This document shows positions 1 through 53,959 of a stretch of 64,000 nt of DNA, piece after piece; position 1 is the stretch's first letter; each line of letters begins with the position of its first letter. The position numbers and the translations under genes are program-made. The notes under the pieces were generated by a model. That model ran no database searches. It saw nothing but the letters and a program-made list of their open reading frames with translations, and was not told where the DNA came from. Location of the stretch: assembly GCF_036365525.1 (NCBI RefSeq), contig NC_090384.1:17132264-17196263 (forward strand). Direction: 5' to 3'. The DNA is from Heterodontus francisci. Its lineage: Eukaryota.

Positions 1-24
1 CTTAGGATATTGTTTGTTAGATAC

Positions 25-54
25 CTGTTGTTGAAGTTGTGGTTGATGTTGATG
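25..54 (-). CDS. Thr/Ser-rich micro-exon, 30 nt, (A)STSTTTSTT, mucin-like gene
   Basis: minus strand ttctttccag|CATCAACATCAACCACAACTTCAACAACAG|gtatct; phase 1-1. Confidence 0.75.
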
Positions 55-214
55 CTGGAAAGAACACAGTTAATGGTGTGAATGTGCAGACTGGAAAATC
101 ATCTCAGAATCTATCAATGCTGAATGTCAATTATAATATCGTCAAACATGCAGGTTTCGTTCACTGCACAACTTTACTGAAACTATCGGTACAACGGCAC
201 AGCTAATTTCATAC

Positions 215-244
215 CTGTTGCTGAAGTTGTAGTTGTTGTCGAGG
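215..244 (-). CDS. Thr/Ser-rich micro-exon, 30 nt, (A)STTTTTSAT
   Basis: cctttccag|CCTCGACAACAACTACAACTTCAGCAACAG|gtatga. Confidence 0.75.
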
Positions 245-1104
245 CTGGAAAGGAGACATTTGAAGCTGTGATTGTGGAAGGTATAAAATCATCCCATCAT
301 TTATAAAAGCAGTTTACCAGTTGGCAATTCATCAACTATGCATTTCTCATAATCCTCCCCTCAGTCTTATTTAGAAGGGTTTGCTCATTTCCTGTACCTT
401 TCTTCCACCAGCAACATAATCTTATTAATATTATAAAGCTGACAGTAACCGAGAAGCAATTGCAATGCAGCTCCTTTTTGAAGGTTTCAAATGATTCTGC
501 CACAGCTGTCATGTCCATTAGATCCTTCTGAATGCCCAGTGGACATATATTGATCCGAGACTGCATGTAGAAGAAGGTGGTCACCCCACAGCTAGAGGGG
601 AATATTGAGGTAGTGAGAGAGTGTGAAGTGGTTTTGAAAAAAGTAATATACTTGGCGTGATCAGAACATGCAGTATGTTTTCACAGGGAATGGTTGAGAC
701 AGGGACCATTGCATCTTTAAGCAGCAATGTAAATAAACATTTGAAGCAGAGGAAGATGCAGGGATAAGAATTGATATCAGATAATTGGGGTTGCTTTTGG
801 TTTGCGCAGGAAACAGGAGCACAGAATCCAATGGGCCAAAAGGTGCTCTTCATTTCTAAGTTTCATACAATTGAAAGTGCTCAATGGGAAATTTTCAGTA
901 TAAAAGCAGAGGTTAATTCAAAAATATTTTTGCATAGATAACCTGCATTTTTATTTTGGCAGGTTCAAGAGTGAGAATTACTATCCAATTGGGGTCCATT
1001 TCTGGGATAATGAAATTCGAAGGAGACTTTGATGCTTTGACAGAGTAACTTTGATGATTGTGAAATCAGTGCAAACTATTGGAATTAGGTGATGAACTTT
1101 CTAC

Positions 1105-1134
1105 CTGTTGTTGAAGTTGGAGTGGTTGTTGACT
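1105..1134 (-). CDS. Thr/Ser-rich micro-exon, 30 nt, (E)STTTPTSTT
   Basis: ttttttccag|AGTCAACAACCACTCCAACTTCAACAACAG|gtagaa. Confidence 0.72.
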
Positions 1135-1492
1135 CTGGAAAAAAGAGAGTTGAAGATATAAATTCAAAAAATTCAAAATTACAGATGCCAATATTAGTGG
1201 ATGAATAGTTAAAACTTGTAAATGCTTTCCTCACTCTGCTACTTAACTAAAACAAATGGAAGAATAACATTCTTCATTTGAAAATTCCAATTGCCAAGAC
1301 AATGATTGTCATTATTTAGAGTATTCATTTCCTGCCTGATGAAGGTGTAACTGTTAGGAATATTAAATTATACTGTGACCTTCCATGGAGAAGACTAATT
1401 ATCAAGTACTGAAACCTGCAGTCAATCTTCATACAATGACTATGTTGTGAGGTCAATGTAAAATGCTTCAATTACTATTGGTAATTTGATAC

Positions 1493-1534
1493 CTGTTGTT
1501 GAAGTCAAAGTTGTTGTTGGTGTCAATGTTGATG
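1493..1534 (-). CDS. Thr/Ser-rich micro-exon, 42 nt, (A)STLTPTTTLTSTT
   Basis: tactttgcag|...ACAACAG|gtatca; frame-preserving. Confidence 0.72.
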
Positions 1535-2354
1535 CTGCAAAGTAAAGATTTGAATGTTTAGGTGAGGAGGATATTGAGAAATTGCATCTTCTTTCAGTGG
1601 GAAATACTGGATGTGAAGTGAACAAACATGTGGAAATGGGCAGCATAAGCAATGAATTTCATGATGCTGAACATTGATGCTGGAAAGGATACAGTGAAAG
1701 GCACAACTGAAAGTTTGAAAACAGCTGTCGTAAAGAAAATAGGAATGCAAGTACTGGGCACTAATGAATAGCAATAACAGAATATGCCCTTTTGCAGCAT
1801 GCCTAACACCCTGCTCCTGGCTATTTGAGTCAAGAGTTAAAAAGAATGAAAATACACAGCAGGATGATCAAGACAAGATAGATCAGTGTTGTTGGAGCAA
1901 GTTCATTAGCCAGAACTAAAACTGAAATATGTGATGTATTCCAATGTTAGGAAGCTGAACAATAACAAGAATATATGTTTCCCACAGTATGCAGTAGTCG
2001 AGTGTCTCTTACAAAATCTAGTTGAGTGTTTTCTTTTAGACCCAAGAACATCACAACGGTGACATGAATGGTGAAAAAACTAGGAAACGGATGGTGAAAA
2101 ACAGGAAACATTGCTTTCAGGTATAAAACATTTGGATAGCATTTTGATTTGGACGCTGTATGAGACACACACAGGAAGCTTGCACACTGTATACACACAC
2201 ACACACACCGAACTCTCCAAAATAACCATCCAATCAAAAAATATATAATCACAGATCATTACAGAGAAGTTTTGCTGTGAAAGGAACGTGTTACTGATCA
2301 ATATGACATTGTCTATCACCAATCTATCACCTTTTGACATGCATTCAGAGCCAT

Positions 2355-3800
2355 GGGTCGTAATTTTACCTTGACAAATCGGGCGTCCTCGGAGGTGGCT
2401 TCAGTGAAAAATGGCAAGCAATGATGTCAGATTGTGTCCCTGATGTCATGACGCCAGATCGCCATTTTCCACTGGTCAGACGCAGGCGAGATGGGACCAC
2501 CTCTCAGCATCCGATTTAAGGCAATTGACGGCCAATTGAGACAATTAAAGAGCCAATTAAATGCTATTTTACGTCCCCTGTGCCATTTTACGTTATGTGC
2601 ATGGGCCATAACATGGGGGAGGGAGGTGGACACAGCTTTAAATGAGTGTGAAAGGCTCTCCCACTGAAGGAGTTTGAGGTACTGGAGTTTTGTGTTTCGT
2701 GTGTTTGATGAAACAGTAAATTTAAAGGTCTGAGCTGATATTGCTGGCTCCCCAGGGCTCACTTCAGTGAGTAATAATCGTGGCAGCACCATAGCTTCTG
2801 AGATTTCTCCTTGGTGGGGGAGGGCGGTGCGAGTGCCATTCCTCACAGAAGGCACTAAAAAGCTGTGCCCATTCTATTTTAGGGACACTGCTCTCATGGA
2901 CGTTGTCCATTCTGGATGAGGGTCCTCTGGTGATGAAGAGAACTGGACAAGAAGGGACAGGCGGGCAAGTGGACAAGCAAATCAGCGACCTGCTGTCCAG
3001 CTTGGTAATAGGGGAGGGGCAGAAGGCCACAGAGTGCACCGGGCGCAAAGACCTGTGAGGAGACGAGTCTACCCAGGAGGCAGGGAGTACCAGCAGCAGT
3101 TGAGCTTCCTACAGATGTCTGAGCGCCAGTGCCTTAGCAGACTGCGCCTGTCCCGAGAGACTGCGACATCTCTGTGTAAGATGATGGCAGCAGAGGTCAG
3201 CTCCAACTGTATGGGTGGCCATCTATTGCTGGTGGCTCGAAATTTCAGAGTCGCTCTGAACATCTATGTATCAGGCTTTTTCCAGGCTTCCACAGGAGAC
3301 ACATGCAGAGTCTCACATCATAAAGGTGGTAACTGATACCATATTCAGGAGGACCCACCAGTACATCAAGTTCAAGACTGATTCGGCCAGTCAGGCTGAG
3401 AGAGCCAGAGGCTTCAGCACCATTGCTGGGTTTCACATGGATAAAGGAGTTATTGACTGCACACATTTGGCCATCAAAGCTGCTGCAGGTCAGCCAGGGG
3501 CCTTCATTAGCTGGAAGGGATTTCACTCAATGAATGTCTAATTTGTGTGTGACCACTGCAAGAGTCTATTGCAGGTGTGTGCTCGCTATCCATTAATTCT
3601 CTGGAACTCCCAGGTGCCATCGCTTTTCAACCCCCCATAATTCCTCCAAGGATGGATACTTGGCGACAGGGCTTACCTGCTGAAGTGATAGCAGATGACA
3701 TCTGAGGAGCCCATGGAATGAGGCTGAGGAACATTGTCCATTTTTTTAGAAAAGGTGAAGTCGGTTTTTTGATGAGGAAGAACATTTTTACGCAATGGGT
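2355..3800 (+). mobile_element. degenerate Harbinger/PIF transposon, transposase remnant
   Basis: frames give MDVVHSG.., RLRLSRET, GVIDCTHLAIKA, KGFHSMNV; frameshifts and stops; related to the 15681..19915 element; boundaries approximate. Confidence 0.85.
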
Positions 3801-4460
3801 TGTAATGACCATGAATTGGCTGCCCACAAGGATGGTGGAAGCAGACACAAACAACAACTTCTAAAGGAAATTGGATCGCCAATTTATGGAAATAGACTTG
3901 CAAGGCTATGAGGATCGAGTGGGGGAGTGGGACTGACTGGATAGCTCTGTGGAGAGCGAACATGGACCCGCTGGGGTGAATGGCCTCCTCCTATGCTGTA
4001 AATGACTCCATGACATGTAATGAAGGAACAATTCACTTTCAGAATTGTGAAACTACTCAGAAGTCTATCACGATCTTGCACAGAGCTTGATAGATTGAGT
4101 TGAAAAGCATAAATAACTGCCAGGGGCATTGATGCTGGTAATTTAAAGGTAACAAAAGTTGAAATCAGATTTGTAGAATGGGCAGACATTACAACAGAAT
4201 ACCATAATCTTCTATACTTTATGATTTAGAGAATACAGTCACTTACTATAATTGTACAATGAAAAGTGATAAATTGGCAATGCTGTTATGTGAAAAATGA
4301 AACATGCTTGGGTTGTTCTGTCCCTGTTTTGCCGTGCCTGTAATCACCTACTACTTGTCCACCTCGCCCCCACTCCCAAACCCACTTTTAATTGGAATGT
4401 ACATGAAAATCAGTGGTTGTTATGTGCAGAAAACTGCCTGAGCACTTTGAGTGAAAGCAG

Positions 4461-4538
4461 TTTAGATTAGATTAGAGATACAGCACTGAAACAGGCCCTT
4501 CGGCCCACCGAGTCCGTGCCGAACATCAACCACCCGTT
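4461..4538 (-). mobile_element. 5'-truncated SINE 3' tail, same family as the 25791 SINE; copy about 36699..36776
   Basis: reverse complement of ...ggtgggccgaagggcctgtttcagtgctgtatctctaatctaatctaa. Confidence 0.8.
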
Positions 4539-5059
4539 ATTTCTGAAGATGTTGTGAGGTGATGTTGTGACCAAGTGATTGACTATAATATTAATACCAC
4601 AATGGTGGAATATAGGCAGGGAGGCAGTTAAAATAAGGGCAGCTCTTTAAACCTGATTCAGCTGCAAGCCTGCCCGCACCTGATAATGAGCTGTTCTCTT
4701 GAGCAGGCAAGCAGCACACCTGCAGTAACATATTGGAGTGCTGCTTTATCCATTCAGATCAAGTGCAAATGGCCGTTTTAGTCTGAACCCTGAGTCGGGG
4801 GTCAATGACAGCAGTCAGGCCAAAGCTGCCAAGAGTTGGATCCTTTGAAAAGGCCCCACATGGCTGACCGTTCAGAAAGTGGGACCCATGTGATTGAAAG
4901 GCAAGTGGCAGGTTGGTTCCAAAATTGACTCAGTGGCAGGAAGCAAAGGGGAAGGAAGGTATTTTTGTGACGGGAAGAGTGTTTCCAGTGGGGCTCTGCA
5001 GTGTTCAGTTCTAGGTCCATTGCTTTTCTTGGTATAGTGGAATTAAGAAATTTGCAGAT

Positions 5060-5720
5060 GATAAGAAATCAGTCATTATAGGTGGATATGGTGGTTAAGA
5101 AGGCAGACAGGATACTTTCCTTCATTCGCCAAGGCACAGAATATAAAAGCAGGGAGGTTATGCTAGAACTGCATAAAACACTAGCTCGGCCACAGCTAGT
5201 TACTTCACACACTTCTGGTCAGCACATTAAAGGAAGGATGTGATCATACAAGAAAGGTGAAAGAGGAGATTTACGAAGATGTGGCAGGAGTGGACATTTT
5301 CAGCTGGAGGAAAGATTAAATCTGCTGGTCTTATTTCCTTGGGAACAGAGGAGGCTGAGGGAAGATTTAATTGAGGTGTATAATATTATGAGGGACCGAG
5401 ATTGAGCGGATAGGAAATAGCTATTTCTCTTAGCAGAGAGGTGAGTAACCCAGGGTCATAAATTTAAAGTCATTGACAGAATGATTAGACAGGAGATGAG
5501 GAAAGATATTTTCACCCAGAGGGTGCTGCGGGTCTGGAACTCACTGCCTAAATGGGTGGCAGAGGTTGAAATTCACATCACTTTGAAAAAATGTTTGGAT
5601 ATGCACTTGAAATACTGTAACCTACAGGGCTATGGACCATGAGCTGGAAAATGGGATTAGGCTGTATAGCTCTTGCTGAGCTGGCACAGATACGATGGGC
5701 CAAATAGACACCTTCTGTTC
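5060..5720 (+). mobile_element. decayed CR1-type LINE 3' fragment; copy about 37298..37958
   Basis: similar to 31090..31760 (gaatataaaagcagggaggttatgctagaactg...ttttcacccagagggtg). Confidence 0.8.
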
Positions 5721-5986
5721 AGTAAATATTTTATATTTCTATGTGGTCCGAAGCTCATCTCAGAGTCAAATATGACACCAAGCTTGTGAAATGTCTGGTT
5801 CAGACTCAGACGGCTGCCAGGGAGAGAAATGGAGTCGGTGTCCAGACAAAGGAGTTTGTCCCTGATCACGATCACACCCTGCCCACCCACCCAGCCACTT
5901 ACCATTCCTGACCCCCTCACCCCTGTTAAAATCAGTGCCCACAGAAATCCAAACATAAATGAAATTGTAAGCTTTGTCTACTTTAC

Positions 5987-6034
5987 CTTTTGTTGAAGAT
6001 GGTCGTGTAAAATAAGCATGGCTGGTTATTCTGG
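5987..6034 (-). CDS. micro-exon, 48 nt, (A)RITSHAYFTRPSSTK
   Basis: tttttatttccag|...TCTTCAACAAAAG|gtaaag; phase 1-1; 3' end like the other micro-exons. Confidence 0.55.
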
Positions 6035-6431
6035 CTGGAAATAAAAATAATTTGCAAGTATAAGTAGAAATGAAGATCAAAATCAGGATTGCAAAGAGTA
6101 CTGCAATCCAACAAGCAGGAGGCTGCTGGAAGTGGATGTCCATTTTATCCACACTGATTCTACTCTGATGCTGTTTAATATGAAGACAGGCCATTAATTG
6201 TATTATACAAAGAAAAATAAAAGACTAGTGACGCTGCTGAATGGAACATTCTGATGCATGGAATCTAAGGATGTGTAGGAAATGAGCTGCAAAATCAGAA
6301 TTTGAAAGTTTACATATGAAGATGTCGTTTATAGTTTTAACTGAAAGATACTTTTTGTACAATTCTTGTATGATTATTCCTGTGATTGATGGATGAGTAC
6401 AGAATGTTGAAATCACATGTTGAGTTTGTAA

Positions 6432-6461
6432 CTGTTGGTTATGTTGGAGCCCCAGTTGATG
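6432..6461 (-). pseudogene. decayed micro-exon (in-frame TAA, donor GT>TT); copy at 38670..38699
   Basis: cacag|CATCAACTGGGGCTCCAACATAACCAACAG|ttaca. Confidence 0.5.
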
Positions 6462-7562
6462 CTGTGAAGGAAATGAATGAACTTTCATGTTGGAAGAATG
6501 ATAATAAATTCCATCATCATTCAGTGACCTCACCCGTGATCAATTCAATAGAAGGAACGTGACATTTTTCATTGGTGCTCAATTGTTATTGAACTCATGG
6601 TTGTTGATGTTGGAGTCACTGTTGTTTGAAGGTGAGAGTGGAGTAATATCAATATCTTTAACTTCACATCTGCTGTGAAAATCATGGGAGTGGATTTTAA
6701 TTGAGAGCTGTGTTTCCAGGTGTTATTTCCCTCCCACCAGAGCCAGCAGGAGGTCACGGTGATTTTAACTGCTGTGGCTCATTTAAATGTTGCCTGTCCA
6801 TTTTCCACCCCTTCTCGGCAGGAATAGTGTGGAGAGCATCTGCCAGCAGGTAAGTGATTGGAAGGTGTATCAGGTGGATCTCATGGGAGGAAAAGTGTGA
6901 GTCCAGGCCAGGTAGGCCCAATCATTTCAAGTGGGCTGCAGAGGAGTACAGTTTCTGCTCGTGAGCGCACAAAGGAAATTGTTTGACTGACAGGAGGGAC
7001 TCTTGATCAATGTTCCCTCCAGGCCACGCAGCAACCTGAAAGTTCCCGTGCAGGCCGTGCACAGTTCTGCACCTTCGAATTACCGCACACACTGGGTCAT
7101 GACTGCGCCCAAGAATTGAATGGAACCACACACTTAAACAAATCGCCTGTGCAATCCACAAAATAATTAAAGGAAACGTTGCTGTTGATCCTCGCTTCTG
7201 CCTGGCAGGAAAACTTCACCGGCTTCCCCACTCAGATCCCAGTTAAAATGCCATCAGAGAGCCACTGAATGAATTTGTGTGGATGGTGCCTGCTTTAGGC
7301 AGGTGTCTCATCTACCTCCAGAGAACCTGCAGGTTTTATATCAGTGATGGAGTGAAATAGTTGAGTTCTGAGCGGGTAATTACCTAGATTTTAACTGCTC
7401 TCCCTTCTATTTTACTCCAGGTGGGTAGGTAAAATTTGACCTCTGTAGTTTAAAATTATTGCTGAGGCTGCAAAGTAATCTTTTAAAGGTGATGAATCCG
7501 AATTTGTGCACTTTTAAATGAATGATTAAAAACATGGAACAATTGTTTGTAAAATTCCATAC

Positions 7563-7592
7563 CTGTTGTTGAAGTTGCAGTTGTTCCCAATG
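7563..7592 (-). CDS. Thr/Ser-rich micro-exon, 30 nt, (x)LGTTATSTT
   Basis: cccttccag|CATTGGGAACAACTGCAACTTCAACAACAG|gtatgg. Confidence 0.72.
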
Positions 7593-8344
7593 CTGGAAGG
7601 GATACAGTTGAAGATGTAAATGCGAAGAGCATTAAAAAGAACCATTTTTATCAATGGAAAATACCAATTAACAAGTTAGTAGGAGATCACTTGTTTCTTT
7701 TCAATTTGAATTAACTTTCTTCTTGATTAAATACCTCAATACATATTCATTTCATAATTATTGAATTTATGGTTCATATTACAAAGGAAGATTGTAAATG
7801 TATATGAAGCGATTGAGGGTGTAGAACATGAACTGATTGCATTTTCTTCGGTGAAAAATAGCAGCTTCTGAGCCATTTTTACAGAATATTGGAGCAGGAT
7901 TTTTATCTGACAGTTTCTGACAGATAGAGGTAAGTTTTTGGAGCCATTGTCACTATGATTACACACTGCTTCCATCGCTAAATATAAAAGAGCAACAACA
8001 TTGTGCAAACATTATTCAACTGCGTCTGACAGTGTTCCTGGTGGTAAAACCATGCCTAGTATCTGCAGCACTGACACTGTTCAGGCACTGTTTGTGCACT
8101 AAAGGCAGGAAGTTCTGCCTGCTGGATTTGCCAAGCACATGGAAATATTTTCTTCATCCTCACAACACTGAATCCCACAGAATGAGAACCTGGCCATGTT
8201 AATATACATCTGTGTACAGGTTTTTCTTGTTACAAAAATTGAGGCTTGAGTTTGGGAAAACAATCTATTACTGTGCAATATAATCTGAATAATATTTTAC
8301 GACTTTACATTATGTGAATTAAGTAAAACTAAAACATTGCTTAC

Positions 8345-8371
8345 TTGACAGGGTGCCTCCAACCGGTTTTT
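8345..8371 (-). CDS. candidate micro-exon, 27 nt, (E)KPVGGTLS
   Basis: cctttcag|AAAAACCGGTTGGAGGCACCCTGTCAA|gtaagc; good splice sites and a multiple of 3, but not Thr-rich. Confidence 0.35.
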
Positions 8372-8976
8372 CTGAAAGGCAGATTATAATTTGAAATTAA
8401 AACACAAAATGATCCTGCTCCACCAGTCAATACGATCGTGGCTGATCTTAGGCTTCAACTCCACTTTCCCACTGCTCAGCACATCCCTTGATTCCCTGAG
8501 AGACCAAAAATCTGTGTATCCGACCCTTAAATGTATTCATCGATGGAGCATCCACAACCCTCTGGGTAGAGAATTCCAAAGATTGACTACCGTTTGGATG
8601 AAGTAATTTCTCCTCATCTCAGTCTTAAATGATCAGCCCCTTATGCTCAGACTGTGTCCACGTGTTTTAGACTCCTTGACCAGCAGAAACAATCTCTCAG
8701 TGTCTACCCTATCGAGCCCCTTCAGAATCTTGTCTGTTTCGATGAGTTCGCCCCTCATTCTTCTAACTCCAGAGTAGAGAGACCCAATTTACTCAGCCTC
8801 TTATTATAGGGAAACCTCCTCATCCCAGGGTCCAATTTAGTGAACCTTCACTGTACTGCCTCCCATGCAAGTGTATCCTTCCTTAAATGTGGAGACCAAA
8901 ACTGCACACAGTACTCCAGATATGGCCTCACCAAAACCCTGTACAATTGCAGCAAGACTTCTCTATTTCTGTACTC

Positions 8977-10521
8977 CAGGGATATCCAACTTTTAGTGCG
9001 GGGTGAGGGGAGGCAGATTGCAATTTCTTTCTTACAAAGGGGGCCAGTGAGACAATTTCTGAAAGATAAAGGCATTAAAAAGTTATCTTACTATCAATCA
9101 AAACAAGAACAGATGTGCATTTTGTGAAGAAGCTTTAAATGAGAAGATTAATTTGTTGACTTAATTTCTCATCCCTATGTTGCACACTGGTTTACTGAGA
9201 TACCTGGCATTTTTTTGCTTGCACAGGTAGTCAATGTTTGCCTGCACACTTCTCGTGCTGCAGAGTATTCCGCATAGATGTCCATCTGTCAGGAGTGATC
9301 TTGATCAATCATTTTTCGCTCTCTCTCTCTCTCTGTTCCCCAATCTCTGTGTCCCCCTTCCTCTCTCTTTCCCCCTTTTTCTGTCCCTCCTTCCACTCAC
9401 TGTGCCCACGTTCCCTCTCAGTTCCCCCTTTTCCCCCTTTCTCCATCTCTGTTCACCCTCTCTCCCTCTGTCCCCCCTCTTTCTCTGTCCGCATCTCTCA
9501 CTCTCTGCCCCCTTCTCACCTTGAACCCCTATCTCTCTCCCCTTCTCTCTCATCCTCTCTGTTTCACCCCTCTCCATCCGCACTCCCTCTTTCTCTTTCC
9601 CCCTCTCTCTCCCCTTCTCTGTCTCTCCTCTTTCTCTCTCTCTGTCCCCCCTCTCTCTCGGAATACTCTCTGTCCCCTCTCTCTCTTTCCCCTGTCTCTC
9701 TTCCCCCTCCCCTTTTAGCACCCTCTCTCATTTTCCCCCTATCTCACTGAACCTTTTCTCTCTTCCCACTGTTGTTCTTCCCCTCTCTCTTCCCCCATTT
9801 CTCTCTTACCCCCTCTCTCTCTTCCCCCACCTCTCTCTTACCCCACCTCTCTCTTACCCCACTCTCTCTTCCCCAGCTCTCTATTCCCCCTCTCTCTCTC
9901 TTCTGCCCCCTCTCTATTCCCACCCTTCTCTTCTCCCCCTCTCTTTCCCCCTCTCTTTCTCCCCATCTCTTTCTCCCCATCTCTTTTTCCCCATCTCTGT
10001 CCCCACTCTCTCTGTCTGCCCTCCTTCTGTCACTCCCTGCTCTCTCTCTGTAACCATTCCTCTCTGTCCCCCCCCCCCACCCCCTCTCTTCCCAGTCTCT
10101 CTCTCTCCCTCTCTGTTCCCCCTTCTCTCTGGCATTTGCAGGGAGCGGGAGCACTCAGCACAGCATCTTTGCGGTTGGTCAGTTTTGTAAAAAACAAACT
10201 GCACTGTCAATTTCACAGCTGACAGGTGCTGACATCCGAAACCGTGGTTTCCCAACTTTGTACAGATTAGGGATTTTCCTGAGGGCTTTTCTAAAAGTCA
10301 GAACCCACCAGAAAACCCCGAATCAGTTCCAGGTTCAGAAACTGCTGTTCCTGCTCCCAGTCCGTGTCAGCTGTGAAACTGACTGGTGAATTATTTTAAA
10401 AAGATATTCTGGAAGAAGAAGACAATGGAAAATTCCTCATAGCTGAAATACATCCGCGGGCCTGATGAAAACATTTGGTGGGCCAGACCCTGGGCCGTGG
10501 GCCGTATGTTGAACAACCCTG
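8977..10521. mobile_element. non-autonomous hAT-type DNA transposon with 8-bp TSD
   Basis: termini CAGGGATATCCAAC / GTTGAACAACCCTG (imperfect TIR); TSD ctgtactc / ctgcactc; subterminal gggcc motifs. Confidence 0.8.
9315..10130 (+). repeat. ~800-bp polypyrimidine (CT-rich) low-complexity tract; copy about 41553..42374
   Basis: almost only C/T on the plus strand. Confidence 0.95.
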
Positions 10522-11009
10522 CTGCACTCCAATCCCCTTGCAATAAAGGCCACCATGTCATTTGCCTTCCTAATTGTTTACTCTTCCTGCATGCTAACTT
10601 TCAGCATTCCTTGTACAAGCACACCACAGTCTCTTTTTAACATCAATACTTATAGGTTTCATACCTTTGAACTATTATTCTGCTTTTCTATTTTTATGAC
10701 CAAAGTGAATAACTTCACACTTCCCTACATTATACTCCATCTGCCATCGTGTTGCTCACCCACTTAACCTGTCTATATCTTTTTTCAGCCTCTCTGTGTC
10801 CACCCCACAGTTTACATTTCCACCTACCTTTGTATCATAAGCAAACTCAGATACATTACACTCAGTCTCTTCATCTAAAACATGAATATAGATTGTAACT
10901 AGCTGAGGCCCCAGCACTGATCCTTGTGGCACTCCACTATTCACTGTCTGCCAAAGTGAAAATGCCATGTTTATGCCCATTCTTTTCTTCCAGTCTGTTA
11001 ACCAATCCT

Positions 11010-13921: not shown

Positions 13922-13945
13922 CTGTTGTTGAAATTGTTGTTGGCT
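13922..13945 (-). CDS. Thr/Ser-rich micro-exon, 24 nt, (E)PTTISTT
   Basis: cctttacag|AGCCAACAACAATTTCAACAACAG|gtatga. Confidence 0.7.
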
Positions 13946-39800: not shown

Positions 39801-39830
39801 CTGTTGTTGAAGTTGCAGTTGTTCCCAATG
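39801..39830 (-). CDS. Thr/Ser micro-exon (copy of 7563..7592)
   Basis: same sequence and splice sites. Confidence 0.72.
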
Positions 39831-40582: not shown

Positions 40583-40609
40583 TTGACAGGGTGCCTCCAA
40601 CCGGTTTTT
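40583..40609 (-). CDS. candidate micro-exon (copy of 8345..8371)
   Basis: same sequence and splice sites. Confidence 0.35.
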
Positions 40610-41214
40610 CTGAAAGGCAGATTATAATTTGAAATTAAAACACAAAATGATCCTGCTCCACCAGTCAATACGATCGTGGCTGATCTTAGGCTTCAACTCC
40701 ACTTTCCCACTGCTCAGCACATCCCTTGATTCCCTGAGAGACCAAAAATCTGTGTATCCGACCCTTAAATGTATTCATCGATGGAGCATCCACAACCCTC
40801 TGGGTAGAGAATTCCAAAGATTGACTACCGTTTGGATGAAGTAATTTCTGCTCATCTCAGTCTTAAATGATCAGCCCCTTATGCTCAGACTGTGTCCACG
40901 TGTTTTAGAGTCCTTGACCAGCAGAAACAATCTCTCAGTGTCTACCCTATCGAGCCCCTTCAGAATCTTGTATGTTTCGATGAGTTCGCCCCTCATTCTT
41001 CTAACTCCAGAGTAGAGAGACCCAATTTACTCAGCCTCTTATTATAGGGAAACCTCCTCATCCCAGGGTCCAATTTAGTGAACCTTCACTGTACTGCCTC
41101 CCATGCAAGTGTATCCTTCCTTAAATGTGGAGACCAAAACTGCACACAGTACTCCAGATATGGCCTCACCAAAACCCTGTACAATTGCAGCAAGACTTCT
41201 CTATTTCTGTACTC

Positions 41215-42765: not shown

Positions 42766-45700
42766 CTGCACTCCAATCCCCTTGCAATAAAGGCCACCAT
42801 GTCATTTGCCTTCCTAATTGTTTACTCTTCCTGCATGCTAACTTTCAGCATTCCTTGTACAAGCACACCACAGTCTCTTTTTAACATCAATACTTATAGG
42901 TTTCATACCTTTGAACTATTATTCTGCTTTTCTATTTTTATGACCAAAGTGAATAACTTCACACTTCCCTACATTATACTCCATCTGCCATCGTGTTGCT
43001 CACCCACTTAACCTGTCTATATCTTTTTTCAGCCTCTCTGTGTCCCCCCCACAGTTTACATTTCCACCTACCTTTGTATCATAAGCAAACTCAGATACAT
43101 TACACTCAGTCTCTTCATCTAAAACATGAATATAGATTGTAACTAGCTGAGGCCCCAGCACTGATCCTTGTGGCACTCCACTATTCACTGTCTGCCAAAG
43201 TGAAAATGCCATGTTTATGCCCATTCTTTTCTTACAGTCTGTTAACCAATCCTGTATCCATGCAAATATATTACCCCCAACTCCCTGAGCCCTTATATTG
43301 CCGATTAACATTTTGTGTGGAACCTTATCAAATGCCTTTTGGTTTCCTCTTTATAAACCCCACTAATTACATCCTCCAGAACCTCTTATAAATTTGTCAA
43401 ACTGGATTTCCCTTTAGTAAAATCATATTGACTTGCTCTAATCACACTAGATATTAGGCATGACTAAGATGAATTTATGTCTTAAGTGTCACTGGAGGTG
43501 AAAGTTTAAGTGTGGGGAATATGAAATGATGATTCCATCAACTTTCAATGAAAGGAGCTCATTGTCAGGTGAACATGAAGACACTCAGCCGTGTATCCTG
43601 CTAATAACAATGATAGTAACACTTTAAAATGAATGCATTATCATTGGTGTTACAATCAGAAAACCTAGGCCTGTGCATGTATCTTTTTAATTCTGAAGAT
43701 AATGCTAAATCGATATTGTTAATTTCATACTTCTTGTCGAAGTTGACAAGTGGTTGTTGCTGGAAGCTACGTATTTCAAGATAGAAGTGTGGAAAATACA
43801 AATTAATTGCACCATGTTTCAGGACAAAATCTCAGTTGTTAAGACCTAGACAGCCACGCCCGCATCCCACAAACAGATAAAAAAAATCAAGAAAGACATT
43901 TCATAACCACAATTTTCAGACTATCCCGTATACTCCTATAATCTCCTTGGGAGGTAGCTGGAAGTTGCACTATGTTGCCCAGGCCGTGATGGTTCCTGGT
44001 GAGCCTTTTGCAGTGAGAGCTTGCACCTTCCACAAGGAAGGCCACCAGTGTAAGGAATGGGATCTACTTTGGGAAATGCCACTTTCTTTTTCTCAAAGAG
44101 GCTCGACATTGTGTTGGCAGAGTTTTGCTGCTTGAGACCAAGTGTGTTGGCCAAAGTAGAGCCTGTGAGGTTCAGGACTGAATCGTAGCCCAGACTCCAA
44201 AAGGACAACCTTCTTTTGAAAAGAGTCACTCTCAAATTTGCAAATTGGACAGTTGGAGTGAGCTGTAAGATACATTGCTGGGAAAACCTAGCTCTGTTTG
44301 CATTTGTTCATGGATTGGCCAGAATTTCCACCCTCTTTGGCAGCAGGGACCTGAGATGCACCAGGATAGTGAAGGTGCCCTGCATGTTATTTAGTGGCCA
44401 TTGCAACACCAAAGACTTGTGTCAGACAGTAGCAGGGATCCTGGAGAGGAAGGATCATGTGGTTATACTGATAAGATCTTACAACATGTTAGCTGATATT
44501 TGCCCCACACTTAAACTTTCACCTGCAGTGCCACTTGAGACATAAATTCATCTTAGTCATGTCTAATATCTAGTATGATTAGAACAAGTCAACATGGTTT
44601 TACTAAAGGGAAATCCAGTTTGACAAATTTATTAGGGGCTGTGAGGATGTAATTTAGTGGGGTTTATATCGGGGAAACCAAAAGGCATTTGATAAGGTGC
44701 CACACAAAATGTTAATAGGCAATATAGGGCTCATGGACTTGTACGTAATATGTTTGCATGGATTGTCAAGCCAATGTGGGCAAATATTTATTGGCTCAGA
44801 TTTAGTGGTGAGCAGTGAAGTGACGGTGCTCACCGCTGGCATTGAAGAAAGCTGCCAACAAGGATTTAGTGATCTCTGTGATGTGGATTTCCCCTTCCCT
44901 GACATCAGTTTCCAGGGCTGGAGATGTTTTTTAGTAGTAATTATGAAGTTAGTAAGCTGATAAAAATCCAATTGCATCATTGAACAAGCTGAAACATTTA
45001 TAAAATCTTACACAGTAAGATTGTCATAAAAGGACAAGTTCTTGTCAGTTCAGTGATTTCCATTCGATTGCAGTCTGAGAGATTTCAACAGCAGACCTTA
45101 TGGGGAAACAACTGACAGATTTGACATCTAAATGTGCATGTGACAACTCCAGAAGTTTCCATCAGTTGTGGAGGAGTAATGACAGTAAGTGCTGACAGCT
45201 TCCTACCCCAAAAGCTAAGCTGTTTTATCGCTTGTTCATTATCTTATCTAAATGTACTGCTGAATATTTGTTAAATTCGTTGTGTGATTGCAGTTGGCGT
45301 TCACTAACAGTGGAAGTGAACATTGCAATGTATATGTGTAAATCATACAAATACGCTCCATGATCTTTCAGTGGCAAATATCAGCTAACAAGTTGTAAGA
45401 TCTTATCAATAAAAAAGAGCCAAGGAGCTCATCAAGTCTCTCCATGTGTTAATATTGCTTGTTACTCCATCAGTATTTGGTGTTCTCTATGAAACATTAA
45501 TGCCCACTTATTTTCCCTTTTACCTATGAGTGTTGACCATTGGCATTCCACTGGCTATGTTGGATTTGGAGAAGGAAGGTGAATTTCTGTGGGGAGAAGA
45601 GTGGCAGGAACACTGGCACAGCAGGTACTGGCACTCACCCACCTGGGTCATTGGAACCAAGGAGAAAGAATTCATTATGTTAGAAGGGACCTACATTGAC

Positions 45701-46165
45701 CAGGCAGCCACTGAATTATACTATGTCCTGGTGTGTGAACTTTACACAATGGAACACGGTGATATCTTCGCCTGTTGCTCTTAATAACTTCACTACCCTG
45801 AACTTTTAAATCACTTGATCCTTTCAAGACAATACTGGTGACATTTTTCAATTCAGTCAATCATACATGTTGTGTTGTGGAATATTTAGGGATTGGGGGT
45901 CAACTCCTTTCTGCTTAGTATTAAACTAGTAGATATACTTCCAAGTATGTGATTAATTGTAAACCCATAGTTGCTACAGTCAATATGTTGCTACCGGTGA
46001 GGTTACATTTCGTGTAGTTGTGGACAATACAAATTACTACCATCAGTTTAGAGGGAAAAGAGCAGATGAAATAACATCAGACAGAACAGTTTTTGAATTT
46101 CTTGCTGAAAATTGTTGCCAGATAAATTGGAACATTTTGTTGATGAGGTCTGGTTAAGTTCATAC

Positions 46166-46189
46166 CTGTTGTTGAAATTGTTGTTGGCT
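46166..46189 (-). CDS. Thr/Ser micro-exon (copy of 13922..13945)
   Basis: same sequence and splice sites. Confidence 0.7.
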
Positions 46190-46965
46190 CTGTAAAGGAT
46201 ACAGTAAATGAGGTAAGTGTTGCAAATAGAATATTATCTCATCATCATAGAATGCAGAGTAGCTGTTATCATGTCATGAAAAAAACAGATTTCATGCTTT
46301 GAATCTCTACCTGAAGCTGCATTTTGAACATATCAGCTGAAGGTGATTTAAATGCAGTGTCTGTTAATCTCTTCCATATGTCCATTAATCAGTGAAAAAA
46401 TGTTTTTCTCATTTTGAGCCTTGCTCGTGGTTGGAGAACTGTGACCACTTGCTGCCCAATGATTGTCCAATGAAATGAGTTCAGTTACTTCACTCATTTG
46501 TACCAGTTACTAAATGAAAAAGCTTCAGAATACCTGGATTCAGTATTTTACTTGCAGCAAAAATATATTTAGTAACTTGACCCTTTCTTGGGAAGAATCG
46601 TCCTTCAGAATATGTGACTTGGAATCACCTTGGTCACTTTGTATCGTCAGTATGATGACAGTGGAAATTGATATACCTTGTCATTTCATTTCCGAAGTTG
46701 AACTCCAGTACCAAGTTTAAAGTATTGGGAACAGGGAGACACTGATCAATTATGATTGTGAGTTTCTTTCAGACTAAAACAGCTACTGATCATGTCAAAC
46801 TGGTGAACTAGATTGTTTAGTCATGCTTATTTCCAGGTAGTTTACTGTGATTCAATCACATAAAACAAAAGAATGATTTTGCAAATCAAAAGAGACATTT
46901 TGGTGAAAGTTTCTCCACAGTGATAGTCGAGATATTGTAATTGGCTCCGTTTGCTGATAACACAA

Positions 46966-46979
46966 CCACTAGGTGGCGC
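46966..46979 (+). promoter_or_regulatory. CTCF core motif (unit-2 copy)
   Basis: CCACTAGGTGGCGC. Confidence 0.55.
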
Positions 46980-48291
46980 AGTACTCACAATGCACAAATG
47001 CAGCCTTTTCCATTGAATCGTCACTTTCTGTGACGTCTGAGGCAGCTGCCAGGATTAAAGATGGCACTTCTCAATTTATCACAAAAAATTCAACTGGGAC
47101 AATCCCCTCAATGGCTGCCCTCGCCGCCTCCATCCCACCCCCAACAGTCCCCTGCTCCCTCCTGCCGTTACACTTCTCTTTGTTGCTCCTTTCTGCGCCC
47201 ATCTTCTCACCACTCGGCCCCCCGCTGCCTTCCTTTAGACACTCGCTCTAGACTCGCCACTCCTTCCGCCCCCAGCTGCTTGTTCCCCAATTCCCCCTCC
47301 CCATTCTCCAGCCACTCACTCCCCACTTGCACCCCCACCCTCCCCACCCAGCCACTCATTCCGGGCCGCGCCGCTTCCCTGCTCTCGGCCTCTCGTTCCC
47401 ATGTTCGATTGTTCTCAGTCCCACAACCCACAAAATCAATATCCAGATTCGTGCATGGAAAATAGATGAAGACTTGCGGAAGATACGTCCATGTGTATAA
47501 TTAACTTTTGACAGTGAATGCAAACTTATACTGATCCTCCTCAGCAAGGGTCTGCTTCAAAAACTATTAAATTGGGTTTAGAATGTTAAGTATAATAAAC
47601 TGACCTGTTTCTTGTTTAAACTCAGGAAAACCTGTCCAATTGGTTCTTTCATGATGACAGTAAAGGTGAAAGGTAAAACACTCTCAGAGGTGGGAATCCC
47701 GACCACTGTTTAAAAAAGGAATAAACCCTGTTGCGGTTAAATAAGAGGAAGGGCAAGAGGGCAAACATGGAAGTTCCCATTATCGATTATACAATTTTTA
47801 CTGAAAGTATTGTCAAAACTCCACAGCTAATTTCATAGCTGTTGTTGAAATTATAGTTGTTTTCAATCCTGTAAAATTGTGGAATGTACAAAACCATCCC
47901 ATCATGTTTGAAACAGTGTACCATGGCCGGAATTTTTCGCTTACCGGTGGCCCCGGGGTCGATGCGTCTGAAGCGGATCAGGCCCCCGATCCCGCTCCAC
48001 GTCGCCCTGCTGCTGGCATCACGCACTGACCGTCTAATCAGCGGGCCCGCGGCGTAACTCCGAAAAGAAATGGTGCGCGCAGGCGGGAACTTCAGCATCA
48101 TTGGGTGCGGGCCACATACGCGGAAGGCTGATTGTCAGCCCTACATAAAGGATTACTGTTTTTAAATGGAGCAATGAATGACCAATTTGATGTAAAGGAA
48201 GATACAACTGTCATAAAGTCTGGAGATTTCAAAGGCTCCATATCTTGAAACACAGAAAGACTGGGAGACAATAATATTGCTGTTAGAGGTG

Positions 48292-50092
48292 ATGGAGGGC
48301 AGAAGTAATTGCGTTGCCCCCCGATTCTCTGACGATTCACTGCAGGTCCTCCTCCAGGCCATTGAGGAGAGGAGAGACATTCTATTCAGCTCAGATGGGA
48401 GAAGGAGACCCTCCGAAGTGACCAACAGAGCCTGGCTGGAGGTTGCAGAGGAGGTCAGCAGCCGAGGCTTACTGAGGTGTACATGGATGCAGTGCCGCAA
48501 GCGCAATGACCTGCTTCGCTCTGCCTGGGTAAGGGGAATTCCTCATTCATCTAATCGGTTATGTGTCAAGGGAGGTTTCTTGTGTACCCATGATGCAATG
48601 TGGAAGCCCTGTATGATCAATGTTTAGCTGCTTTGAAATGGGACGCATGATGGGCAAGTCTGAGATGAACGCTGATGCTGTGGTGTTAAAGTTGCGCCCA
48701 ACACTGTCACAGCAGTGAAATGCAACACCAACCCTTTGGGTGACAGTGTCATATGCCATTGACTATGTATAAAATAAGTACCTTTGTTTATTCAGGAAAA
48801 GAGGGCACACAATGCCCAGGAGAGGTCACGTACTGGTGGCAGCGTAGCCACCCAGGCATTCCTCACTAGGATGGAGGAGGATGCCTTAATTATAGCAGGG
48901 GAGGAAGGAGGACGCGTCGTGGCAGATGGCGAGGCCGGTGTACCTGGCCATGAGAGTGAGTGTTCCAGAATGTGGTGTAACACTTCATTATGGGGAGGGT
49001 TGGTGAGGCTGTGCTACTGTGCCAATGATTTGGTGAATGTCAAAAGCACTGAATGTTGCCCTCAATTGTAACATCACCCAGATGTAACCATGCTGGAGGC
49101 ACAAACTTGTGCTTAACTCTGGATTGATGATGAAACTGATCACAATGCTTTTCCCAACAGGTGAAACCCAGCTTGTGTCAGGAAGTGTTATCGTTGCCCG
49201 ACCAGCCACCTCTGAGGTGGAGGAGGGCGCCTCAGAGGATGCACCGTCACATCATCGCGACGCACCAAGTACCACAGCAGATACTGACACTTCAGTTGGG
49301 ATGACAGTGTCTGGGGAATCAATGTCACATACTGGTGTGAGCACAGCACAATTGCCCAGCCAGACACCAGAGGCAGAATCGGCCGATGCCTCACACACTC
49401 GGAGGAGAGTGGGATGCCAGGCCAGTGCAGAGCCGCAAGCTGATGACGTGCCTCTGAGATCATCAATTCGTCGGGCGATGTTGCAGGTGCAGAATGTGAT
49501 CCATGGAAATCTGGCGGAGTTGCCTGAAACGCTGTGTGCTATGACTCATACTCTGGAGATATCCATCCAGAGTATGAGTTCAGCAAACTCTCAGGCGTTT
49601 GAATATCTGGCTTCCTCCGTTGATAGACTGGCGGCTGCAGTGGAGGGACCAGTTCTTCATGCAATTCGGGACCTCAAAGTGAGTGTGGCCTCCCTGGACC
49701 AGAGCATCAGAGAGCATAATCTGATGCGATTGCGCCCGCTTGAGAACACTCAGCGCTCTGATGCCACCATTGAGCACTACCAGAGCCTCACGAGGGCACA
49801 GGGGCAGCAGATCGCATAGGGGAGCTCCTCTCACGGCGCCTCTGATGCATCCTGCATCTCCTTGCTCCCTGCACCAGGGACATGTGAACCGCTAAATCCC
49901 GGGGTGATAGAGGGTGCTCATGATATTTGTCATGATGCTGGGCCCTCATGGCCACGAGCATGCAGAGGACGTCCGCCCATGTCATCAAAACCAGGGCGGC
50001 AACAAGATCAGCCACCTGCCTCTGGTAAGTCTGGTGGTGAGGGATCATGCACACGAATGAGCATGCGTAAACGGATTAAGAAAACACTTTAA
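48292..50092 (+). pseudogene. Harbinger Myb/SANT gene with premature TAG at 49817-49819 (exons 48292-48528, 48796-48955, 49161-)
   Basis: TAT>TAG relative to unit 1 removes about 90 C-terminal aa, including the basic RKRIKK tail. Confidence 0.85.
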
Positions 50093-50484
50093 TTTAACTA
50101 CTGTGCACTGGGTGACTTGAAGTACATTTATTTGATTTGTAAAACAATAGTGTTTGATTAAATTGGAGATTTTACCATTGGACATGTCATTCCTGAAGTC
50201 AGATATTACATAGTTAATCAACTCAAGGTGTCTCAACAATGAGGCACACAATTGGATCGCATCTCTCATGATGTGATGGATTGGTTCATCGCATTGTCTC
50301 ACCCCCTAAAGGTTAGAGATTTTGCACTGTCAGATCCTCACAATGATTAATGTCATAAAGCAGTTTGAAACGTGTGAAGATTTATATCGTTTCAACTGAA
50401 ATGCATTCCTTTTCGAGAATCCCCAGTTTCTCTCGCACTTCGAACCAAATTACATTCAGCTTCCTCTCCATGATCATCATTAGA

Positions 50485-51555
50485 CTAATGCCCATCTTCC
50501 TCATCAGAAACGTCGTCATCATCTGATGACACATCGTGCTGACATTGATCATCCTCCAGGGCATCTCCATGTTCAATCGCCAGGTTATGCAAGGCACAGC
50601 AGATGACAATGATTCCGGAAAACCTTGACGGTGCGTACTGCAGTGATCCACCAGTGCGGTAAAGACACCTAAATCTCATCTTTAGGAAGCCTATAGTGTG
50701 CTCGATTGTCACTCTGGTGGCCGCATGGCTCCCGTTGTATCGTTCCTCCGCCTCACCCCTTGGGTTCCTCACTGGTGTCATGAGCCATGTCTTCAGAGGA
50801 TAACCCCTGTCGCCAAGTACCCATCCCTCCATTCTGTGTGGAAGACTGAAAATTGCAGGCACCTGTGAGTTGTGGAGAATGAAAGCATCATGACAACTAC
50901 CAGGGTAACGTGCACACACCTGCATGATTCGCCTCTGATGATCACAGATGAGCTGAATGTTCATTGAATGGAATCCCTTGCGGTTCATGAATGCCCCCGA
51001 CTGTACAGCTGGTGCTCTAAGGGCCACTTGAGTACAGTCTGTCACACCCTGTACCATTGGGAAGCCAGATATAATGCTGAAGCCTCTGGCTCTCTCAGCC
51101 TGACTGGTGTTGTCCGTCTTGAACGTGATGAAATGGTCAGCATGTTGAAACAATGCATCAGTCACAACCTTTATGCAATGGTGCGCTGCTGATTGTGAGA
51201 CACCGCACAAGTCTGCAGCTGAGGCTTGGAAGGAGCCAGACACATAGAAGTTAAGAGCTGCTGTGACCTTTAGAGCGACTGGCATTGGATGGCCAACGAG
51301 ACAGTTTGATACAACATCCACTGCGAGCATCTCACAAAGAGATGGTGCAGTCTCCCGTGACAGCCGCAGCCGTCTTCTGCACTGGCGTTCTGACAGCTGC
51401 AGGTAGTTCAGACGCATTCGGTATGCCCTTACTACTGGGTAGGCACATCTCCTGACAATTGGTTGCTCCCGGGCGACTCTGAGAACTACTCTCCCTCCAA
51501 CAGCACGAGGATGCAGCTTGCTGTACGTTCCCCTGACCATTTGTACTTCTGTCAC
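50485..51555 (-). CDS. Harbinger DDE transposase, 356-aa open frame
   Basis: all DDE motifs (TDCT, GDRGY, IEHTIG) in one frame; the probable native ATG (MGNEHSG-type acidic leader) lies upstream in a different frame. Confidence 0.85.
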   Translation of the reverse strand: MTEVQMVRGTYSKLHPRAVGGRVVLRVAREQPIVRRCAYPVVRAYRMRLNYLQLSERQCRRRLRLSRETAPSLCEMLAVDVVSNCLVGHPMPVALKVTAALNFYVSGSFQASAADLCGVSQSAAHHCIKVVTDALFQHADHFITFKTDNTSQAERARGFSIISGFPMVQGVTDCTQVALRAPAVQSGAFMNRKGFHSMNIQLICDHQRRIMQVCARYPGSCHDAFILHNSQVPAIFSLPHRMEGWVLGDRGYPLKTWLMTPVRNPRGEAEERYNGSHAATRVTIEHTIGFLKMRFRCLYRTGGSLQYAPSRFSGIIVICCALHNLAIEHGDALEDDQCQHDVSSDDDDVSDEEDGH

Positions 51556-53929
51556 TTATTGAATCACTGTCCTCCTCATCTGATGATCCACTTCCAGAAT
51601 GAACATTTCCCATTGTTGAACAGCAGAACAAATGCTTTGATCACAGGTAATAGCTTCCAGCTTTTGTGACTGGCTCACTTCAGGTACTTCCTTCAGGCAA
51701 TAACTAATATTACGTGGGTCCCTATCAGCAGTGCATAACATTCAGATTAAACCTTCTGCACAACCTGCAAGTTACAACCCTTTTTAGGGCACACAAATAA
51801 TATCAGCATTCATAAATTTCAATAAATTCATTTTTACCTCCAAATCACTCATAACTCAATGCCTGCTGCTCTTTTGAACCTGCCGGGTTCCCGACATGCC
51901 CCACGACCCGATTATCGGCCGTAAAATCAGATACATAGCGTAAAATCTCTGTCAATTGGATTCTGAATTTCCTTCAGTACTTCTCAATTGATGTTAGTCG
52001 GGCGGCGAGCACAAACTCGATCGCGGCCGACTTCCCACGCTGGTTAAATTGCGTCAGCGCGTAATGACGCCGGGGACCCAGCCCGACATCATCGCACGCC
52101 AATTTTCCCTCCGCATGACCCCGACGGGACCCGATTCGGAACAGTAAAATTCCGGCCAATTTGTCAAGAAATCAAACATGCACTTCATTACATTCTGCAG
52201 GACATGAGCTGAGACAGAGGAATAGTTGAGTGACGTTATCGAGGTGGAGGGAAAATGTCTTGGTGATGGAGGACAAGTGGACGTAGTTACATTATTGGAA
52301 AAAATTCCGAGGGACAGTATAAACCATCACTTAGAAAGACACAGATTAGAAAAGGAGAGTCAGTGTGGATTCATTAAGGGAAGAAGGCAGCTGATAAATT
52401 GATTGAATTATTTGTGGAGGTAACAAGGATGGTCGAAGAGAGAGTCGTGTTTGATACAGTCTGCATAGACTTGAGGAAGGTTTTTGACAAGGTTTCATGT
52501 TGCAGATTGAGCAGGAAAGTAAGAGCCCAAAGGATCTAAGCACAAGTGGCAAGTTGGATCCAAAACTGGCTCAGTGACCGGAAGCAAAGTGTAATGGTAG
52601 ATAGTTGTTTTTGTGACCTGTTTGCAGTGGTTTTCCACAGCGCTCAGTACAAGGTCCCTCAATTTCCAGAATTTATAGCAATGATTCAGACTTAAATGTA
52701 AGGGACATGATTGAGTTTGCAGATGATACAGAAATTGATTGTGTGGTTGCTAATGAGAAGAAAGCTGTGGAATGTAAAAAGACAACAACGGACTGGTCAG
52801 GGTGTCTTCAACCATTACTTCTGCTGAACGATACATCATAATTTGAAATGAATGCTGAATATGAGAAACATAGAATGGTTGCAGCACTGAAAGTGACCAT
52901 TCAGCCCATTGAGCCTTTCCCAGCTCTCTGAAAGAGCAATATCGCTTGTCCCACTCCCCTGCCCTTTCCCTATAGTCGTGCAATTCATTTTCCTTTCAAC
53001 TGCTTATCCAATTTCCTTTTGAAGTCCATGATTGAATGTGGACCACCCTTTCAGGCAGTGCATCACTTCGAGCTTCTGTACGTTAATTTTCATCTGCCAC
53101 GTATCTGCCCATTCCACCCGACTATGTCTCTTGAGGTCTATCACTCTCCTCGCTGTTCACTTTAAAGATTCTGTGTCATCTGCAGGTTTTGAAATTATAT
53201 CCTGTACACCCAAGTCTGAGTTGTAAATATATATCTATTATATATATCTATTATATATATTGTATATATTGAGATGAGTAAAGTCCAATGTATGCGAAAG
53301 GTCTTCCAAACACTTGGAAATCACCTGTGAAATAGTATAATTAGACTGTGGAAACAATTGTTGGGAGCACAAACCGTTCACAAAAACTAACCAGCAACGA
53401 TGCAATTTCACAATTTAAAGACTTTCAAGCCAGTCAGTTTCATTGAACAGTAGCTCCTCTCTGTGTTCTCGCCTGTTGACCCTGGTGAATTTCACACAGC
53501 TCAGGAAAGACATGTGCTGGCTGGTAATGCCAGAATCTTAAATTAAATCCACAACCTGACCTCCAGCATTTTTCAGGGCCTTAACCCTATCCCCCACCTG
53601 CACCCAAACCCATTGTTCTCCGCCATTCCCGACAGTTAATATTCTGCCACTATCTCAATCAATTAAACTTCTCCATACTTAGAATTTTGGTTACCAGTTT
53701 ATTGGGAGTTTTTGTTGAAAATATATTGTTTATTGTACAGCTGTTGAAGTTGCAGTTGATGTTGTTGCTGGAAAGAACACAGTTAATGTTGTGAATATGC
53801 AGTCTGGAAAATCATCCCATTATCCTTTAATGCAGAATATCAGTTGTCACGTTATCAAACATGCAGGTTTCATTCATTGCACACATTTTTACTGAAATTA
53901 TTGTTAGAACAGCACAGTTTTTTTCATAC

Positions 53930-53959
53930 CTGTTGCTGAAGTTGCAGTTGTTGTCGATG
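53930..53959 (-). CDS. Thr/Ser micro-exon (copy of 21688..21717)
   Basis: same sequence and splice sites. Confidence 0.72.

Follow-up and report, generated by a model that had tools for sequence, protein, structure and literature searches.

Can a mucin-type domain be assembled from exons of only 24-48 nt scattered through long introns? This question is raised by a 64,000-nt stretch of the genome of the horn shark Heterodontus francisci (the window; C14:17,132,264-17,196,263, contig NC_090384.1), in which an initial annotation had picked out a recurring set of minus-strand micro-exons. It proposed a Pro/Thr/Ser-rich (PTS) mucin domain built from symmetric phase-1 micro-exons. Our analysis supports that proposal, and the joined frame is open and rich in Thr and Ser (T/S). 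We consider it highly probable that the window is the middle of a gene for a gel-forming mucin of the Muc6 family (gene A), whose T/S-rich domain is likely spliced from about 250 phase-1 exons.

The window (1..64000) consists of two copies of a 32.24-kb tandem unit and lies wholly within gene A. The two copies are 99.72% identical, with 81 mismatches and 5 gaps in 31.8 kb, and repeat DNA that also occurs outside the array makes up about 52% of the unit. On its minus strand, each unit carries nine intact exons with a pyrimidine tract, a CAG acceptor and a GT donor, in the order E30, G24, K27, I30, J48, A42, B30, C30, D30, and the set recurs at about +32,240 (Table 1). All nine types are 24-48 nt long, a multiple of three, open and in phase 1, and they sum to 291 nt. 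The initial annotation had given about nine intact AG/GT phase-1 exons and 291 nt per roughly 32 kb, an exact match in both units, and the coordinates of the two junctions that it named, 215>54 and 1493>1134, are correct. It described most exons as ending in ACAACAG or GCAACAG; K27 and J48 are not T/S exons of the ACAACAG type. Its inventory left out four dead or doubtful cassettes per unit: E2 and F, which lack a GT donor, L45, which contains a stop, and the ambiguous H36 (cassette H), with a weak donor and no constraint.

The exon motif is highly specific to this locus. A fixed rule (AG, a 24-48-nt exon of 3n length, GTA, at least 60% T/S) found six exons on the minus strand of one unit and none on the plus strand; among 200 Markov controls, 196 gave none and 4 gave one. 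Across the 6.0-Gb genome, a 16-nt pattern spanning exon end and donor matched 156 times (154 reverse, 2 forward; 3 for the reversed control), and 151 of these matches sit in the gene A region on the minus strand. Every match of the K-exon pattern (31/31) falls inside the array, on the sense strand of gene A. These counts speak strongly against the genome-wide simple repeat or transposable-element derivative that the initial annotation had named as its own refutation.

Beyond the window, the array extends from C14:17,562,152 to 16,795,836 and holds 249 intact micro-exons totalling 8,199 nt over 766 kb, roughly 14 times the extent first noted. By type, the intact copies number B39, A37, K31, I31, J28, C22, D22, G21 and E18; the full cassette catalogue has 286 rows, after 13 D30 rows overlapping E2 were removed as duplicates from 299. 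Introns have a median length of 1.5 kb (range 159-18,670 nt). Cassette order is nearly fixed, with drop-outs, across about 31 units, and neighboring units are 98.7-99.7% alike. The spacing from one K exon to the next ranges from 11.5 to 34 kb, with one block of near-11.5-kb units that are 98.7-99.2% alike. The array is thus a nested tandem duplication of exon-plus-intron blocks. An orphan copy of array DNA (1.1 kb, 93% identical, with one intact B-type exon) lies at C2:87,792,565-87,793,652.

As the initial annotation had anticipated, the gene ends lie outside the window, and extension mapped exons on both sides of the array. Gene A spans at least 1.19 Mb on the minus strand, from C14:17,913,207 or higher down to 16,726,178. 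On the N-terminal side, 25 VWD-C8-TIL exons (C14:17,913,207 to 17,572,119) form an open frame of 1,151 aa that shares 81% identity, over 1,150 aa, with the catshark mucin-6-like protein P0002, which has three VWD, three C8 and three TIL stretches. One gene A exon is 100% identical to the RefSeq mucin-6-like model P0001 of H. francisci itself. A candidate signal-peptide exon lies at C14:18,007,924 on the minus strand, about 95 kb upstream of the first exon mapped. On the C-terminal side, five exons (C14:16,765,874 to 16,726,178) encode 168 aa and end with a knot-like exon, a stop and AATAAA. AG/GT borders are present in 30/30 of these flanking exons. The penultimate exon carries the first-half cysteine pattern of a cystine knot, and the last exon alone, half the domain, matched PF00007 with E 6.7e-4 and 20.4 bits, under the 24-bit cut-off. 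The roughly 80 aa before the knot are rich in Cys.

The reading frame ties these parts together. The last D3 exon ends in phase 1, the first C-terminal exon begins in phase 1, and all array exons are 1-1; the array therefore fits a slot that is defined independently of it. A virtual coding sequence of 25 + 249 + 5 exons is open for 4,053 aa with 0 internal stops. The array would contribute 2,733 aa of this, with Thr 47%, Ser 17%, Ala 9% and Pro 5.5%. The initial annotation had suggested a search for SEA, EGF, transmembrane (TM) or other exons; what the extension uncovered instead is a predicted secreted, gel-forming Muc6 paralogue (D1-D2-D'D3, PTS, a short Cys-rich part, probable cystine knot). 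We rejected a SEA/TM membrane mucin because the in-phase chain past the array is Cys-rich and leads to the knot-like exon, stop and polyadenylation signal. No VWD match was found in the 168-aa C-terminal chain, and a PF00094 scan listed none between array and stop among the 150 of 252 candidates that were scored. Muc6 proteins are described as lacking a fourth VWD unit (PMC4948705).

Two lines of evidence place gene A in the Muc6 family. For a midpoint-rooted D3 tree of 46 rows, all 43 of 43 database proteins gave a usable D3 stretch, and genomic gene A stood in for P0001. Gene A falls in the Muc6 clade (100/100), separate from the Muc2, Muc5 and Muc19 groups, and six other sharks and rays have orthologues of it. 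Together with two further genes of the same cluster, B and C, gene A forms a chondrichthyan subclade (100/98). The second line is synteny. The human cluster has the order AP2A2-MUC6-MUC2-MUC5, with MUC6 on the strand opposite to MUC2 and MUC5. The shark cluster at C14:16.66-20.08 Mb comprises an alpha-adaptin gene (+), the Muc6 paralogues A, B and C (-) and then Muc2/Muc5-like genes (+). The alpha-adaptin gene, AP2A2 or AP2A1, was recognized by a plus-strand PF02296 match at C14:16,658,007, 68 kb past the 3' end of gene A; the plus-strand VWD genes lie at 19.37-20.08 Mb, on its 5' side, and an alignment of their exons with two exons from C27 retrieves mucin-2/5 proteins. Tree and synteny together identify gene A as Muc6. 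A PDB search with P0002 returned MUC5B, MUC5AC, MUC2 and VWF and no chain named MUC6, and one with a single exon gave no match. A second cluster of VWD genes, probably of the Muc19 or Muc2-like group, lies at C27:27.3-28.4 Mb.

Are the micro-exons used? We compared variation among array copies with that in flanking intron. The figures are from a filtered test; the unfiltered version probably inflated intron variation through non-homologous flanks. Across eight live types, the AG/GT positions (32 sites) held 1 variant where 6.7 were expected (P about 0.01), the exons held 33 variants where 50.8 were expected (P about 0.005), and exon indels numbered 0 against 2.8 expected. Dead types showed no significant deficit of variation. 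Protein models from other species point the same way. PVGGT motifs in catshark P0002 and bamboo shark P0003 predicted the K exon, which was then found as a 27-nt AG/GTAAGC exon with a strong donor in 31 copies. The sevengill Heptranchias model P0004 ends with an A-type peptide followed by GIKLPI, the read-through residues of a horn shark intron, and the bamboo shark (Chiloscyllium) model P0003 ends with a K-type peptide followed by SKQ.F, the read-through residues of an intron of the window gene. Exon and donor therefore appear common to several shark orders. A ray model, P0005, brings D3, T/S units of roughly 10 aa and the corresponding C-terminal exons together in a single protein. This indirect evidence says that the micro-exons are used; we infer their splicing from sequence, not from spliced junctions.

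Several observations weigh against this conclusion. Columns of related copies are not independent, which makes the P values approximate, and J48 and H36 show no significant constraint. The ratio of nonsynonymous to synonymous polymorphism (pN/pS) in seven T/S types is 0.60, a weak signal from 15 nonsynonymous and 13 synonymous alleles. The A42 donor scores low (0.6). Since all copies stem from about nine types, the 3n count reduces to five distinct lengths, and 3n lengths are favored anyway by slippage of ACA triplets. Dead cassettes are kept in 17-23 copies, so copy number partly hitch-hikes. Among the joints listed (15 of 60) for four runs, X1-X4, over window 1-8000, none was a micro-exon joint; all those listed lie between window 1871 and 5694, and repeat-derived contigs dominate the output. 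With the last exon as query, no RNA-recorded run was among the matches listed, and one run of unrecorded kind matched 0.32 of 19 words. Contigs of X3, whose RNA nature is a guess and whose species is unproven, cover 5/5 exon-bearing bins of window 1-8000, a hint of exon use that is weak, since X3 has depth in 24/30 bins. In the 12 bins that are empty in X1, X2 and X4, X3 covers the 5 exon-bearing ones and 1/7 others, a contrast that we do not count as evidence. As to the tissue of expression, in the available portion of a shark skin proteomics study, mucin-5B and mucin-2 types are named and mucin-6 is not mentioned (PMC10707392).

We propose that the repeat unit of this domain is an exon-plus-intron cassette. 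Unequal crossing-over of 11.5-34-kb blocks would lengthen or shorten the domain with the frame kept, a dispersed equivalent of the single-exon variable number tandem repeat (VNTR) of human MUC6. Live splice sites would be maintained by selection and cassettes with a lost donor tolerated; donor loss would silence a cassette harmlessly. Most live exons would probably be included, and harmless stochastic skipping might add length spread. The predicted product is a secreted, O-glycosylated polymer, in which a spacer of up to about 2,700 aa would set the gel mesh.

A different account, which we judge unlikely, makes skipping regulated and combinatorial: tissues or cells would pick subsets of cassettes and so tune mucin length and glycosylation. 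The exons are all symmetric, and every junction codon starts with G or A, so that skipping causes neither frameshift nor stop; the initial annotation had claimed frame preservation for any subset, and freedom from stops can be added. Xenopus laevis FIM-C.1 is described as polymorphic by alternative splicing (PMC7177656), and schistosome micro-exon genes (MEGs) as showing exon skipping (PMC4015677). In P0001, D3 is followed directly by a B-type variant; the closest copy of that variant sits at least 17 intact exons into the array. We take this jump as a hint of skipping, from a model whose own evidence is not visible. However, P0001 is a truncated automatic model of 656 aa with only two micro-exons, and it ends in intron-like sequence. 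The stretch serving as its terminal exon has three exact copies (C14:17,539,609, 17,385,859 and 17,324,546); it may reflect an artefact of annotation, or else an early 3' end that yields a knot-less short form. The combinatorial control that the initial annotation suggested also meets two obstacles. No skip junction was among the joints listed, and the 190 intact copies of seven T/S types encode only 21 distinct peptides, so skipping would mainly alter length, not sequence. The fixed cassette order over about 31 units is explained by DNA duplication and calls for no splicing control.

An array that goes mostly unused, with pseudo-exons passively amplified in a giant intron and a short, ovomucin-like Muc6 protein with little PTS, seems to us quite improbable. 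The dead cassettes E2, F and L45 have been amplified alongside the live ones, half of the unit is repeat DNA, and gel-forming relatives without PTS, such as ovomucin, are described (PMC4948705). Against this, live splice sites vary less than intron whereas dead ones do not, the stop-bearing cassette L45 has only a weak donor, the exon types turn up again in protein models from other sharks, and the adjoining paralogue B has an independent open array. That the motif derives from a transposon or simple repeat, or that the array is an assembly artefact, is hardly credible: the C2 copy with its B exon and the close likeness of adjacent units would fit, but the genome-wide matches concentrate in gene A on its sense strand, eight of the nine exon types share flanks with no non-array DNA, units differ by at least 81 substitutions and in cassette content, and the region holds no N.

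The array of paralogue B (C14:18,352,637-18,234,834, minus strand) follows a D3 region at C14:18,436,239-18,353,559. It consists of 64 phase-1 micro-exons of 24 and 27 nt over 118 kb, with a unit of about 2.8 kb, and its open frame continues into C-terminal exons that are homologous with the gene A ones. The 545 aa that it encodes have no PTS character: 25% Pro, 16.5% Glu, 16% Tyr and less than 10% Thr plus Ser, in repeats of the types EPTYYKAP, EEHAPYNPS and AESAVYYPP. The EEHAPYNPS exon has a tandem (NAGNAG) acceptor. Related YYPP repeats occur in P0011, the catshark orthologue. The split design probably predates the duplication that gave A and B, and paralogue B suggests that the Muc6 phase-1 slot can carry non-mucin chemistry. 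As a tentative extension, possible rather than probable, the phase-1 slot between D3 and knot in sharks and rays may accept plug-in cassettes: in A, about 250 T/S exons whose skipping would tune length, and in B, 64 Pro/Glu/Tyr exons that would give a tyrosine-cross-linkable structural or adhesive polymer. Shark egg capsules are tyrosine-rich and hardened by tyrosine tanning, a capsule composition that our literature search did not confirm. That paralogue B serves in the egg capsule or in some other gland product is speculative; mucin staining has been described in oviducal glands (PMC8471067).

Gene C had no micro-exon array within 137 kb below its D3. Below that D3, from C14:18,779,086 downwards on the minus strand, runs a 1,492-codon open frame of 21-nt Gly/Ser/Pro/Thr/Asn repeats, with a 59.3-kb duplication nearby. 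We leave this frame unassigned and do not count it as part of gene C, because it has no in-phase splice link and transposase-like sequence lies alongside. Two Muc6 paralogues are described in Callorhinchus (PMC4948705).

Gene A resembles MUC6/Muc6 in its three VWD-C8-TIL units, central predicted PTS domain, absence of D4, probable C-terminal cystine knot, place in the cluster and tree position. In contrast to the human mucin domain, described as one VNTR exon of up to about 13.5 kb (PMC9712336), the shark domain has about 250 predicted exons over 766 kb, and an extra Cys-rich stretch precedes the knot. Mucin domains in several exons have precedents. One exon per repeat is found in X. laevis FIM-B.1, and human MUC19, with very many exons, may be a closer precedent. 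Chicken and zebrafish Muc13 are described as having multi-exon mucin domains, for which length control by splicing and an ancestral design were proposed (PMC1552070). Chicken Muc13 shares with gene A one repeat per exon, but it belongs to the SEA/TM membrane mucins and has 12 or more near-identical repeats of 20 aa, whereas gene A is predicted to encode a secreted polymer from nine types of cassette arranged in nested higher-order units. Otogl/MucXS of Xenopus tropicalis is, like gene A, a gel-forming mucin with a multiexonic central domain (PMC5789918).

The SmPoMuc genes and MEGs of Schistosoma mansoni are also described as repeating a short symmetric exon and its flanking introns in tandem, with homogenization (PMC2576457, PMC4015677); in SmPoMuc a 27-bp exon occurs in up to 20 tandem 1-kb repeats (PMC2576457). 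Unlike gene A, they encode short proteins and have a single exon type in each unit, and their repeats, about 1 kb long, number 20 at most. Splicing variation has been shown in them, whereas the gene A exons are predictions from DNA, and the likeness may be taken as an analogy of design. Gene A is an extreme variant of a known multi-exon mucin design. What is new here is the Muc6 family, the scale, the nested duplication and the paralogue with a Pro/Glu/Tyr-rich non-mucin array. Our search of the open literature, which did not extend to subscription papers, turned up nothing on a Muc6 built from micro-exons in cartilaginous fishes.

The locus presents a Muc6 mucin domain in many-exon form, with about ten times the repeats of the published cases compared, in the oldest jawed-vertebrate lineage. 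The 2006 proposal that a split PTS domain is ancestral (PMC1552070) becomes testable in a gel-forming mucin, and it may be asked whether human MUC6 came by its single VNTR exon secondarily. The split layout explains why public mucin-6-like models of sharks and rays stop at or soon past D3. The gene is also a natural test of how cells define exons of 30 nt, hundreds of them nearly identical, within a pre-mRNA longer than 1 Mb. The tyrosine-rich array of paralogue B is the most surprising lead; it suggests that one slot can swap glycan chemistry for tyrosine chemistry, which may be of use for shark biomaterials.

Table 1. Micro-exons and silent or doubtful cassettes in the two units of the window (positions within the window).
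Feature	Unit	Position	Strand	Details
E30 (ASTTTATSAT type)	upper	53930..53959	-	AG/GT, 30 nt, phase 1
Dead cassette E2	upper	53738..53767	-	paralogue of D30, without in-register GT donor
Dead cassette F	upper	47839..47868	-	donor position is CT
G24 (EPTTISTT)	upper	46166..46189	-	
Doubtful cassette H	upper	43731..43766	-	36 nt from upstream TAG, 29 nt from inner CAG
K27 (EKPVGGTLS)	upper	40583..40609	-	donor GTAAGC; located via catshark and bamboo shark protein models
I30 (LGTTATSTT)	upper	39801..39830	-	
Dead cassette L45	upper	38655..38699	-	in-frame TAA, weak donor
J48 (ARITSHAYFTRPSSTK)	upper	38225..38272	-	AG/GT and open in 28/28 copies
A42 (ASTLTPTTTLTSTT)	upper	33730..33771	-	resembles tail of Heptranchias model P0004
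B30 (ESTTTPTSTT)	upper	33342..33371	-	
C30 (ASTTTTTSAT)	upper	32452..32481	-	
D30 (ASTSTTTSTT)	upper	32262..32291	-	
E30	lower	21688..21717	-	
Dead cassette E2	lower	21496..21525	-	
Dead cassette F	lower	15595..15624	-	
G24	lower	13922..13945	-	
Doubtful cassette H	lower	11487..11522	-	
K27	lower	8345..8371	-	
I30	lower	7563..7592	-	
Dead cassette L45	lower	6417..6461	-	
J48	lower	5987..6034	-	
A42	lower	1493..1534	-	
B30	lower	1105..1134	-	
C30	lower	215..244	-	
D30	lower	25..54	-	

Two convergent open frames, at window 18690-19313 (-) and 16844-17845 (+), have been copied along with each 32-kb unit; they look like the two genes, for the nuclease and its partner, of Harbinger-type transposons. 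Fragments of LINE reverse transcriptase lie in the window at about 21.9-31.8 kb.

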